This document shows, one piece after another, positions 43,332-57,795 of a stretch of DNA of 64,000 bases (position 1 is its first letter; each line of letters begins with the position of its first letter). A model generated the notes under the pieces. That model made no database searches, was not told the origin of the DNA, and saw only the letters and a list, made by a program, of their open reading frames with translations. The DNA is from Candidatus Magasanikiibacteriota bacterium (lineage in GTDB: Bacteria; Patescibacteriota; Patescibacteriia; Magasanikbacterales; UBA922), in NCBI GenBank assembly GCA_041665025.1, contig JBAYJP010000001.1, positions 16,207 to 80,206 on the forward strand, in the 5' to 3' direction. The translations under genes were made by a program, and so were the position numbers.

Positions 43332-43480
43332 ATAATATAAAATAATTTGAGTACAAATAATCTCATAAACCAAACTCATTGTCAAAGAAAATTCTGTTTT
43401 TGTTCATGAAAACAAAAAACCTTTATAAAGGTTTTTTGCGAGCTCGTCGGGCCGGATTCGAACCGGCGACCAATTGGTTA

Positions 43481-44038
43481 CACTTATCTACTGCTTACGC
43501 AATAGCGTGGACTATCTCATTCACCTTTCCTAGGTGATAGGGCGCTTGTGTTGGATTATTGCTGGGACTCACCAACTAGTCTCTGCACCTGCCTTCGCTA
43601 AAACTACACATATGTAGCATCCCAGCGAAGGATTGGCTCAGGATTACCCCGCCATGACGGGGCTCCCCTGAATTCACCCTATTTTTCAATCCCAATTTCT
43701 TGGGAAAGCTGCACTATACCTGCATGAACCTCACGGTGACAATTAGCACAAAGCATTACGCATTTGTCTAACTCTTTTACTACTCTTGACCAAGCCCTAG
43801 TCAATCCATCTTTGGATATGCCAAACTCTTTTTGCTTAGCGTCAAGATGATGGAAATCAAATGCTTCTAGGCATTTATGATAACCACATATCATGCATTT
43901 GCCGCCTTTGTACTCAACAGCCATTGCTCGGATTTTTCTTCTCCGTTTATCAACAGCTTGAATGAGATACTTGGCACGGACACGGTATATTCTTTTGTCT
44001 TTTACCATAATAACATATTATAGCAAAGACTGTGTTCT
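43481..44038 (-). ncRNA. Group I self-splicing intron (within the tRNA-Asn gene) carrying a homing endonuclease ORF
   Basis: Q-like GUAAUCCUGAGCC, R-like GUGCAGAGACUAGU and S-like GAGAUAGUCCAC core elements are visible. Intron ends in G and the 5' exon ends in U. Confidence 0.6.
43679..44008 (-). CDS. HNH homing endonuclease (intron-encoded)
   Basis: CxxC...HH...N...CxxCH HNH/zinc-finger pattern (CMICGYHKCLEAFDFHHLD...CANCHREVH); located inside the intron. Confidence 0.7.
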   Translation of the reverse strand: MVKDKRIYRVRAKYLIQAVDKRRRKIRAMAVEYKGGKCMICGYHKCLEAFDFHHLDAKQKEFGISKDGLTRAWSRVVKELDKCVMLCANCHREVHAGIVQLSQEIGIEK

Positions 44039-44183
44039 ACAGCCAACTGCTCTACCGCTGAGCTACCGACGAATATAACAGCAAATAGTATACAAACTAT
44101 ACCGATTTATGTCAATACAGTGCATATAACTTGAAAAATTGCCTATATACAGGTATACTTGTGGAGTTATTAAAATAAATTTC

Positions 44184-46197: not shown

Positions 46198-47217
46198 CTA
46201 TATTTCTTCCACTATTTCTTCTATTTCTTCAATTGTATTCACTCGTACCAATTTACTCCGAATCTCTTTCATTCCTTCCAACCCTTTAAAATAAAAAGCT
46301 AAATGTTTCCGCAGTCCTACTATTCCCCTTTCCCCATAGTGCTGAATTTGAAGTTGAGCATGACGTAATATCACATCTTTTCTTTCTTGCAACGAAATTA
46401 GTGATCGATGATTAGCAATCGACGATAACAACCAGGGGTTCCCCAAGGCTCCTCGTCCAATCATTACTCCATCTGCTCCGGTCGTCTCTAAACATCGCTC
46501 AATATCTTCAGGCGAAGTAATATCTCCATTCGCTATCACGGGTATTTTAACACACTTCTTCGCCTCCCCTATCATCTCCCAGTTTGCCTTTCCACTATAG
46601 CCCTGGACTTTTGTCCTTCCGTGGATCGAAAGAGCATCAACACCAGCCTGTTCTAGCTTTTGCGCAAATTCCAGTATTTCACCTTCTTTAGACCATCCAA
46701 GACGGGTTTTAACACTTATAGGAACCCCCAAATTGGCGTTTTTGAGGGCTTTTACTATCTCTACCGCCCTATTGTGGTCTTTCATAAGCGCAGCGCCAGA
46801 ATCAGCCTTTCCAGCTATTTTCGGAACAGGGCAACCCATATTGATGTCTACCCCAAATTCATCCCGAGCGGAGCGGAGCGGAGAGAAGGGTCTTTCGAAG
46901 GATTCCATTTTTGGATTAAAAAATTTCTCTGTAATAATACGAGCCGCTTCTACAATCACCTCCGGCTTACTTCCAAACAACTGTAACACAATCGACCTCT
47001 CAATTTCTTCAAACTTGCACATGTTTAATGTCTTTTCATTGCCACGCACAATCGCCTCTGCACTAACCATTTCTCTAAAAATTATAAATTCTTTATGTAT
47101 TCCTTTTTCCTTTTTCCTTAATTCTTGTACCTCTCTACATAATATCGAAAACGGCTGATCTGTATAGTCAGCCATAGGCGCGAGAGCAATGATTGGTTTG
47201 TTTTCAATCCATGTCAT
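46198..47217 (-). CDS. tRNA-dihydrouridine synthase (DusB-like)
   Basis: FMN-binding TIM barrel (LAPMADYTD, NMGCP, catalytic Cys region). Contains (GAGCG)x3 at 46866-46880. Confidence 0.8.
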   Translation of the reverse strand: MTWIENKPIIALAPMADYTDQPFSILCREVQELRKKEKGIHKEFIIFREMVSAEAIVRGNEKTLNMCKFEEIERSIVLQLFGSKPEVIVEAARIITEKFFNPKMESFERPFSPLRSARDEFGVDINMGCPVPKIAGKADSGAALMKDHNRAVEIVKALKNANLGVPISVKTRLGWSKEGEILEFAQKLEQAGVDALSIHGRTKVQGYSGKANWEMIGEAKKCVKIPVIANGDITSPEDIERCLETTGADGVMIGRGALGNPWLLSSIANHRSLISLQERKDVILRHAQLQIQHYGERGIVGLRKHLAFYFKGLEGMKEIRSKLVRVNTIEEIEEIVEEI

Positions 47218-48035
47218 ATATCAAGCGGACTTTTTATTTCTGCTAAATTATTCCTCGCCACATGCGTATAAATCTGTGTCGTTTGCAACTTCGCATGACC
47301 CAATAGTTCTTGAATATACCTGATATCTGTCCCGTTTTCAAGCAAATGAGTAGCAAAACTATGGCGCAAAGTGTGGGGAGAGACTTTTTTTCTCAAACCA
47401 GCTTTTTGCGCCGCCTGCGAGACAATTTTTTGTATTGTCGCCTCAGTCAGCCTTTCTCCTCTTCCATTGGTAAAAAGAAAGTCATCTTTATTTTTCAACC
47501 CAGCTTGGACTTCCAAAATAGATAACAATTTTCTAGGCAATACAACCAGCCTATCTTTCTTACCCTTACCTTGAAACACCCTCAACATTTTTCTATCTAT
47601 ATCAATATCACACATCTTGATATGTGTCAGTTCACTTACGCGCACTCCGGTACCATACAATAAACTGATGATACAATTATGTTTGGGGTTGGTAGTCACC
47701 TCTATCATTTTATTCACTTCTTCTTTTGATAAAACAACGGGTAAATACTTATTTTTCTTAGGTTGCTTGATATGTAAAAAAAAATTTCTTTTCCAAATCT
47801 GGCCATAATAAAAATGAAGAGCGTTGTAAGCTACTGCAACGGTACTAGAAGAAACTTTTTGTCCCAAATAATCTAAATAATTTTTAATGTCCTCGGTATT
47901 AGCTTCTCGCGGATCTTTCTGGCAAAACCGCAACAACTCTTCATTATAATGAACATAAGAATCAATAGTGCTTCGACTATAGTTACGGATCCTCAATTCT
48001 CTTTCTAAATTGGAAAAAGTATTGTTTTCCAACAT
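47214..48035 (-). CDS. Tyrosine site-specific recombinase (XerC/D / integrase family)
   Basis: R...HxLRHSFATHLL...LLGHAKLQTTQIYTHV catalytic R-H-R-Y constellation. ATGA overlap with dusB; divergent from the downstream array. Confidence 0.8.
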   Translation of the reverse strand: MLENNTFSNLERELRIRNYSRSTIDSYVHYNEELLRFCQKDPREANTEDIKNYLDYLGQKVSSSTVAVAYNALHFYYGQIWKRNFFLHIKQPKKNKYLPVVLSKEEVNKMIEVTTNPKHNCIISLLYGTGVRVSELTHIKMCDIDIDRKMLRVFQGKGKKDRLVVLPRKLLSILEVQAGLKNKDDFLFTNGRGERLTEATIQKIVSQAAQKAGLRKKVSPHTLRHSFATHLLENGTDIRYIQELLGHAKLQTTQIYTHVARNNLAEIKSPLDI

Positions 48036-57589: not shown

Positions 57590-57795
57590 ATTTACTGATA
57601 CACTCCATCTAGTTACAACTCACCACTATATCTGCTGGAAGAGGGTGCAAGTCCCTCACTGTGCCGCAACGGTATTCTCCGATTTAAATTCGGGGTCAGT
57701 CCGATCTTCAGATATGGTTTATTGCGTGGTTGCCAAAGGCAACGTCACGCAGTAATCCCGAGCAGGAACTTGTATTTTTTGAAACGTACATCAAA
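57590..57795 (+). ncRNA. Candidate cobalamin (B12) riboswitch
   Basis: GGAAGAGGGUGCAAGUCCCUCACUGU core resembles the conserved GGUGnnAnUCC...CCACUGU cobalamin-aptamer elements, and a degenerate AGUCCGA..CAGA B12-box-like stretch follows. Positioned in the 5' leader of DUF4430 genes. Confidence 0.4.

Follow-up and report, generated by a model that had tools for sequence, protein, structure and literature searches.

Does a stretch of bacterial DNA in which a default search reports no tRNA gene carry a functional tRNA-Asn? The question is raised by 64,000 nucleotides of a Candidatus Magasanikiibacteriota bacterium (GenBank assembly GCA_041665025.1, contig JBAYJP010000001.1, positions 16,207 to 80,206), hereafter the window; all window coordinates refer to this 64-kb stretch. 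An initial annotation, made from the sequence alone, had proposed that its minus strand contains a tRNA-Asn(GUU) gene split by a group I intron that encodes an HNH homing endonuclease. The analysis presented here indicates that the locus is very probably a functional tRNA-Asn(GUU) gene with a mobile, self-splicing group I intron inserted between U35 and U36 (Table 1).

A tRNA-Asn(GUU) gene in two exons

ARAGORN in its default mode, which allows no introns, reported zero tRNAs in the whole window, a false negative for tRNA-Asn. With introns allowed (option -i), the same program applied directly to the window returned a tRNA-Asn at c[43442,44072] with a 558-nt intron, and this split gene was the sole tRNA detected. 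The extra base 43442 is merely the first base past the discriminator. On the minus strand, the 5′ exon reads UCGUCGG-UA-GCUC-AGCGGUA-GAGC-A-GUUGG-CUGU (44072–44039) and the 3′ exon reads UAA-CCAAU-UGGUC-GCCGG-UUCGAAU-CCGGC-CCGACGA-G (43480–43443), the latter without an encoded CCA. When ligated, the two exons form a 72-nt cloverleaf that ARAGORN classifies as tRNA-Asn(GTT). The intron-permitting search thereby recovered, with the same coordinates and exons, the cloverleaf that the initial annotation had been able to assemble only by joining 44039–44072 to 43443–43480. Its remark that tRNA genes whose introns carry homing endonucleases are uncommon in bacteria and usually missed by gene finders was also true, although the class has now been published (Nakagawa, Amikura, Omae and Suzuki, mSystems 2026, PMC13011429; preprint 10.1101/2025.07.03.662931, July 2025; hereafter Nakagawa et al., 2026).

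Uninterrupted counterparts of the gene were readily found. The 26-nt ligated junction is present without interruption in at least 120 metagenome contigs, and the best-matching tRNA-Asn genes without an intron agree with the ligated exons at 68 of 72 positions (94%), with U1-A72 and G73. The split-gene signal is well above chance expectation. Given a tRNA survey that covers the 64-kb window, we infer that the cell would be without tRNA-Asn unless the intron splices out.

The same arrangement recurs in other genomes. Relatives of the HNH gene were collected in a scan of one genome per species, which yielded at least 565 genomic loci, and the best 80 of these (L001–L080) were read; the relatives are phylogenetically non-independent, so that counts among them are inflated. 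Of these 80 loci, 78 have the HNH gene within a tRNA-Asn gene that is split at 35/36, and the exon boundaries are the same in all 78, with CTGT before the intron, G as the last intron base and TAA after it. ARAGORN -i labels 43 of these 78 loci Thr(tgt/cgt), Tyr(gta), His(gtg) or Ser(gga) by means of a shifted intron boundary. These labels were rejected as boundary artefacts on the grounds of the uniform exon ends.

Structure of the group I intron

A search with the Rfam group I model (RF00028) under laxer filters matched 43736–43488 on the minus strand with 65.6 bits, above the gathering score of 50 (E = 3e-16 for the region and 2e-14 for the whole window). A scan of the full window at the default gathering threshold lost this match to its speed filters, and the laxer "evalue" mode shows it. 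The speed filters of Rfam gathering scans may conceal similar false negatives in other windows. The catalytic-core elements that had been picked out by eye could be placed on the fold: the Q string is the 3′ strand of P4, the R string is J6/7 with the 5′ strand of P7, and the S string is the 3′ strand of P7, so that R and S both map onto P7. The rule of a U before the intron and a G at its end, which the initial annotation had applied to the junction, was likewise borne out, the last base of the 5′ exon being U and that of the intron G (43481). This terminal G is invariant in the alignment of relatives.

The proposed fold was tested on a MAFFT alignment of 57 ribozyme cores. It is paired in 87.7% of cells, compared with 33–44% when the partners were slid, and its covariation score is 0.489, where sliding the partners and shuffling gave no more than 0.111 and 0.154, respectively. 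Compensatory changes were observed in 40 pairs; P2, P3, P4, P6a, P8 and P9 covary, and P7 is invariant. All core helices pair perfectly in the window copy. The base of the P5 stem is conserved and its distal part is variable in length, and P6b is confined to the window copy and a few relatives. The least regular part of the fold lies between P7 and the 3′ strand of P3, where only 57% of cells are paired across relatives and two structural variants are present: most relatives have two hairpins (P7.1 and P7.2), and the window copy has one, with a conserved loop that it has in common with several relatives (L001, L006 and L034). A two-hairpin arrangement of P7.1 and P7.2 is typical of subgroup IA. 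The hairpin or hairpins at this position would be compatible with subgroup IA, to which the class has been assigned (Nakagawa et al., 2026). Subgroup IC3, considered for its resemblance to the Azoarcus intron, was dropped in view of these hairpins and of the published assignment.

P1 and the internal guide sequence

P1 is a long-range helix, in which exon positions C32–U35 and intron A1 pair with U-GCAG at 43713–43709, approximately 325 nt downstream. The exon CUGU pairs with GCAG, and U35 forms a U.G wobble with the guide at the 5′ splice site. GCAGC is invariant in the 78 relatives. The first intron base covaries with the base 5′ of GCAGC (G:C in 46 loci, A:U in 23, G:U in 3 and a mismatch in 6), giving a standard pair in 72 of 78. 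Exon positions 30–31 were also examined in the relatives and do not covary with the guide, which stays GCAGC(U/C) while the exon varies. For a P10 pairing of the 3′ exon with the guide flank, the window offers only a weak match that is out of register, and such a pairing is not claimed.

A shorter, local pairing was also noted at 44028–44044 (minus strand), where exon GGCUGU can pair with intron ACAGUC in 6 bp closed by a 5-nt loop and followed by UUUGCUAU; the scan flagged it as terminator-like. As a candidate for P1 this local hairpin was rejected, as it places a U-A pair and not U.G at the splice site and is absent from relatives. It would be a competitor of P1.

The HNH gene inside the intron

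The annotated 109-aa HNH open reading frame (ORF) in the orientation of the tRNA was confirmed at 44008–43679, inside the intron (44038–43481). Over its last ~35 nt the ORF also contributes to ribozyme structure, covering the guide sequence, P2 and the 5′ strand of P3, where its UAG stop codon is placed. The protein matches PHROG 2255 "HNH endonuclease" with E = 1e-27. It has 785 homologues, and an identical sequence is known from a Candidatus Magasanikbacteria metagenome-assembled genome (MAG). Among its close relatives, 23 of 34 are matched by the Pfam HNH model at E ≤ 0.01 (best, 7e-07). Residues C38, C41, H53, H54, C87, N89, C90, H91 and H95 are invariant in 34 sequences including that of the window, and they comprise two CxxC pairs, an HH pair, Asn89 and His95. 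Judged from these sequence features, the protein is most likely a homing endonuclease that would cut intron-less tRNA-Asn genes near the anticodon, both activity and target being predicted.

Weighing the alternatives

From the conservation described above, we infer that the window copy splices; a relative has been spliced in vitro (Nakagawa et al., 2026). Several observations weigh against this interpretation of the locus as a self-splicing and mobile intron. The case for splicing of the window copy rests on conservation. P1 is unsupported outside the anticodon-loop pairs and the intron +1 pair, exon position 31 being G, A or C, and GCAGC also codes for a conserved Gln-Leu, which leaves two possible causes for its invariance. 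The window protein reaches 17.5 bits with Pfam HNH (PF01844), under the cut-off of 21.4, and the solved structures retrieved with the family profile were all distant HNH domains (a group II maturase with E = 0.002, and McrA). The promoter proposed below within the intron is a consensus pattern that is carried by 29 of 78 relatives, themselves not independent. Finally, a boundary shifted by 2 nt also satisfies the U/G rule.

The score under the Pfam cut-off would also fit a decaying relic, in which the intron has ceased to splice or the HNH gene has become inactive, with tRNA-Asn supplied by a second gene. The extent of the tRNA survey, which is that of the window, and the single P7.1 hairpin, in place of the two of most relatives, point in the same direction. 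However, this hairpin is shared with L001, L006 and L034 and thus represents a variant rather than damage. Moreover, the perfect pairing of the core helices, the retention of every invariant ribozyme and protein column of the family, the full length of the ORF (109 aa) and the strong promoter-like site kept upstream all argue against decay, and a relic is considered improbable. The shifted boundary would move the splice sites to 33/34 and yield a tRNA-Thr(UGU). The window would still have a U before the intron and a G at its end. In 37 of the 80 related loci, moreover, ARAGORN itself reports a Thr(tgt) or Thr(cgt) gene whose intron sits at position 33 or 34 in its numbering. However, the GCAG guide makes a U.G wobble with U35 and a Watson–Crick U-A pair with U33, and all 78 loci have the 35/36 exon ends. 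The sequenced spliced product of a relative is that of 35/36, and the tool artefact has been documented (Nakagawa et al., 2026). In turn, the identity of the ligated exons to intron-less tRNA-Asn(GUU) genes reaches 94%, and U1-A72 and G73 are present in them. The 33/34 boundary was therefore rejected because of the U.G wobble at U35, the Asn-type tRNA body and the published product of a relative, and it is regarded as highly improbable.

Integrative elements often insert into tRNA genes, and the window encodes a tyrosine recombinase 3 kb away (47214–48035). The two tRNA halves could accordingly be imagined as att-site remnants of an integrative element in a tRNA-Asn gene, an outcome that the initial annotation had named as one that would overturn its reading. 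However, the halves are complementary and not duplicated, they do not overlap, and together they make up precisely one tRNA; the intervening 558 nt hold a complete group I ribozyme and an HNH gene with no integrase; and the same arrangement is present in 78 genomes. An att duplication is excluded by the non-overlapping halves and the complete ribozyme between them, and we assign this origin next to no probability.

Candidate expression signals and proposed mechanism

A functional tRNA-Asn gene interrupted by a self-splicing intron at 35/36 is thus the preferred interpretation, and the flanking sequence offers candidate signals for its expression. A TTGACA/TATACT site ends 14 nt upstream of tRNA position 1 and, by its match to the consensus, may be the promoter of the tRNA precursor. 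Downstream of the gene, the palindrome at 43410–43437 with the GUUUU that follows it is likely an intrinsic terminator. The terminator scan did not flag this palindrome because its stem has two G-C pairs only.

A further candidate signal lies inside the intron, upstream of the HNH start codon. TTGGCT of the anticodon arm in the 5′ exon (44046–44041) is a possible −35 element, with an 18-nt spacing to a TG-extended TATAAT. Of the 78 homologous introns, 29 have the pattern TGnTAnnnT ahead of the HNH start codon (shuffles gave 4.6 ± 2.1), and 26 of these have it at a distance of 6–9 nt. This extended −10 pattern suggests a separate, leaderless or nearly leaderless HNH transcript initiated inside the intron. 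An exon-derived −35 was dropped as a general feature, the spacing being suitable only where the −10 starts at intron positions 13–14; it is claimed for the window and a subset of relatives.

The following course of events is proposed. A precursor of approximately 660–700 nt would be transcribed from the TTGACA/TATACT promoter, and the intron would fold into the standard core with P1, P2, P3–P8 including the P3/P7 pseudoknot, the P7.1 insertion and P9. The U35.G wobble would mark the 5′ splice site, and external guanosine would attack after U35. The terminal G (43481) would then enter the P7 site, and ligation of the exons would restore the GUU anticodon. RNase P and CCA addition, the latter required because no CCA is encoded, would complete the tRNA. 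The HNH protein, for its part, would probably be made from a nearly leaderless mRNA that starts at a separate extended −10 promoter, and it would cleave intron-less tRNA-Asn genes near the anticodon, whereupon the intron would be copied into them. Intron-less alleles with the identical junction are common, and relatives of the endonuclease gene adjoin phage tRNA-Asn genes.

Table 1. Positions of the exons, intron elements and candidate expression signals of the split tRNA-Asn gene in the 64-kb window.
Feature	Position	Strand	Support
Sigma-70-type promoter-like site for tRNA precursor (TTGACA, 17 nt, TATACT)	44087..44115	-	11/12 consensus matches
5′ exon of tRNA-Asn(GUU): acceptor 5′ strand, D arm, anticodon stem 5′ strand, C32 U33 G34 U35	44039..44072	-	
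Group I intron, 558 nt, between anticodon positions 35 and 36	43481..44038	-	ARAGORN -i, RF00028, covariation
Extended −10 promoter-like element TGCTATAAT, 8 nt upstream of HNH ATG	44017..44025	-	10/12 matches, TG before −10
HNH homing-endonuclease ORF (predicted function), 109 aa, in P1 loop	43679..44008	-	ORF list, PHROG, Pfam, conserved residues
P1 3′ strand with guide U-GCAGC-U; partners intron +1, exon C32-U35 (and G31)	43707..43713	-	
P2 hairpin (UCCCAA-GAAA-UUGGGA)	43690..43705	-	98% of cells paired; 6/6 pairs changed on both sides
P3 5′ strand, partner 43544-43537	43675..43682	-	89% paired; 3 pairs with compensatory changes
P4-P5 domain: P4 43671-43666 with 43643-43638, P5 hairpin 43662-43647	43638..43671	-	P4 99% paired, 3 pairs compensatory
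P6, P6a and P6b extension	43587..43637	-	P6a 90% paired, 8/8 pairs covary
P7 5′ strand (G-A-GACUA), partner 43514-43509; guanosine-binding helix, pseudoknot with P3	43577..43583	-	six pairs invariant, 57/57
P7.1 hairpin between P7 and P3 3′ strand (GUUGG, 17-nt loop, CCAAC)	43550..43576	-	mapping; 57% paired
P3 3′ strand, partner 43682-43675	43537..43544	-	same helix test as P3 5′ strand
P8 hairpin	43522..43536	-	91% paired; 5/5 pairs covary
P7 3′ strand (UAGUCC)	43509..43514	-	invariant P7 pairs
P9 hairpin, GUAA loop, then AUAAGUG to terminal G 43481	43488..43505	-	89% paired; 6/7 pairs covary
3′ exon of tRNA-Asn: U36 A37 A38, anticodon stem 3′ strand, variable loop, T arm, acceptor 3′ strand, discriminator G73	43443..43480	-	
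Palindrome AAAAAACCUUUAUAAAGGUUUUUU then GUUUU, putative intrinsic terminator of precursor	43410..43437	-	read from sequence

Distribution of the intron and phage relatives of its HNH gene

HNH-carrying introns at 35/36 were encountered under several host labels: Blastocatellia, Pyrinomonadaceae or Acidobacteriota (L015, L037, L052, L054, L078 and L080), Elusimicrobia (L043, L048, L057, L077 and L079), Aerophobetes (L029) and "delta proteobacterium" (L032). Some of these loci with labels other than Patescibacteria are on megabase contigs; the labels are record titles taken at face value, and binning errors are possible. In the published survey of complete genomes, such introns were found in Patescibacteria only (Nakagawa et al., 2026). 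The labels suggest that the HNH-carrying intron may be distributed over more phyla than that survey indicated.

Relatives of the HNH protein are also encoded by viruses, which were represented by IMG/VR contigs (L081–L160) and by the cultured phages L161 and L163. Viral contigs contain at least 541 loci with free-standing HNH relatives of 43–67% identity, situated in tRNA arrays, and these relatives are without the N-terminal ~15 residues and without the ribozyme-overlapping tail. The nearest tRNA is an intact tRNA-Asn(GTT) in 39 of 71 viral loci, where Asn accounts for 63 of 444 tRNAs; it is usually 3–180 nt from the HNH gene and on the same strand. For example, Cronobacter phage CR3 (L161, NC_017974.1 145846-146292) encodes an HNH relative with a tRNA-Asn 18 nt upstream, and the relative of Bacillus phage Bastille (L163, NC_018856.1 5857-6685) is flanked by two tRNA-Asn genes. 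This proximity suggests that the HNH family targets the tRNA-Asn gene.

Two viral loci combine a free-standing HNH gene with a split tRNA-Asn. In L132, the HNH gene (565-849) is followed after 20 nt by a tRNA-Asn (869-1149) split at 35/36 by a 206-nt intron without an ORF; in L082, the HNH gene (1501-1743) is followed after 256 nt by a tRNA-Asn (1999-2267) split at the same site by a 194-nt ORF-less intron. The L132 intron scores 67.4 bits with RF00028, and the L082 intron gave no match to this model at E ≤ 0.001. The GCAGC guide is located 7–9 nt past the 5′ splice site in both introns, which indicates that the ORF of the cellular introns is an insertion in L1. The arrangement in L132 and L082 resembles a transitional stage from a free-standing to an intron-borne endonuclease, and it would match the proposed route by which free-standing endonucleases invade introns. 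Separately, two viral loci (L128, 110-695; L134, 1260-1845) have an HNH relative in a 512-nt interruption of a tRNA that ARAGORN reports as Ile(tat). Their exon ends are not CTGT and TAA, and no Rfam group I match was obtained at E ≤ 0.001.

A joint reading of these observations is plausible enough to be offered, if tentatively. The HNH lineage may target the tRNA-Asn gene and may move between phage tRNA arrays, where it is free-standing, and the P1 loop of cellular introns in Patescibacteria and in Acidobacteriota- and Elusimicrobia-labelled genomes. L132 and L082 would then be living intermediates, and the intron-borne gene could be expressed as a leaderless mRNA from an intronic extended −10 element, with the anticodon arm serving as the −35 in the window.

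Other features of the window

The tyrosine recombinase gene at 47214–48035 (minus strand), 3 kb from the tRNA gene, encodes a Phage_integrase domain with an N-terminal SAM-like domain and is XerC/D-like; no connection with the intron was noted. An AdoCbl (cobalamin) riboswitch match (RF01482) was obtained at 57612–57754 on the plus strand, with 43.5 bits, under the gathering score of 50 (E = 1e-4).

Significance

Default tRNA and Rfam scans miss this gene, and the MAG would consequently be scored as being without tRNA-Asn. Split tRNA-Asn genes that are missed in this manner affect completeness estimates for Patescibacteria, a point already made by Nakagawa et al. (2026). The class itself was published and experimentally validated in 2025–2026, and the current understanding is not overturned by our results. 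The present locus adds a well-resolved bacterial tRNA intron that carries an endonuclease gene, with the ORF placed in the P1 loop and its 3′ end overlapping the guide, P2 and P3. What goes beyond the published account is the wider range of host labels, the free-standing phage relatives and the extended −10 element, the functional readings of which are drawn from sequence patterns. These side observations suggest how introns may acquire endonucleases and spread between phyla, and the HNH/intron family offers a way to test the origin of mobile introns.

Comparison with known systems

The closest known systems were described in a survey of 95 complete Patescibacteria genomes, in which 15 tRNA-Asn(GUU) and three tRNA-Asp genes were found to contain group I introns at 35/36 and to be missed or mislabelled by standard tools (Nakagawa et al., 2026; PMC13011429). 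Guanosine-dependent splicing in vitro was demonstrated in that study for one tRNA-Asn intron (GCA_016700035.1) and one tRNA-Asp intron; product sequencing placed the splice at 35/36, and a change of the terminal G to C abolished it. The introns were assigned to subgroup IA, and 4 of the 15 tRNA-Asn introns encode an HNH protein. The text does not mention promoters (except T7), phage relatives or free-standing genes, nor does it describe the ORF in L1 or its overlap with the guide sequence, P2 and P3 (Nakagawa et al., 2026). The window intron is a further member of this class, which it matches in its phylum, tRNA, insertion at 35/36, U/G boundaries, HNH gene and failure to be detected by default tools. 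It differs in its source, a Magasanikbacteria MAG outside the 95 complete genomes.

A more distant counterpart is the tRNA-fMet(CAU) intron of Synechocystis PCC 6803, which encodes I-Ssp6803I. In both cases, a group I intron with a homing endonuclease gene, predicted as such in the window, interrupts the anticodon-loop sequence of a bacterial tRNA gene. The Synechocystis intron differs in its host tRNA and insertion site (33/34), in its endonuclease, which is of the PD-(D/E)XK and not the HNH type, and in its subgroup. The cyanobacterial tRNA-fMet(CAU) intron class is also listed by Nakagawa et al. (2026).

The free-standing HNH genes beside ORF-less introns in L132 and L082 have parallels in phages. 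Zeng, Bonocora and Shub reportedly described in 2009 a cyanophage psbA intron accompanied by the free-standing F-CphI. In phage T4, mobE and I-TevIII represent trans homing, with a free-standing endonuclease beside an intron without an endonuclease (PMC2790892). Unlike these pairs, the window element would represent the final, fused stage, in which a cellular genome carries the putative endonuclease gene within the intron itself. Homing endonucleases within phage tRNA gene clusters are also familiar, as in the F-Tfl HNH nickases of phage T5. Another example is SegB of phage T4, a GIY-YIG enzyme encoded in a tRNA gene cluster (PMC13096335). The SegB and F-Tfl genes are not within introns, unlike the HNH gene of the window, and in this free-standing form, set in phage tRNA arrays, they resemble its relatives in phages CR3 and Bastille.

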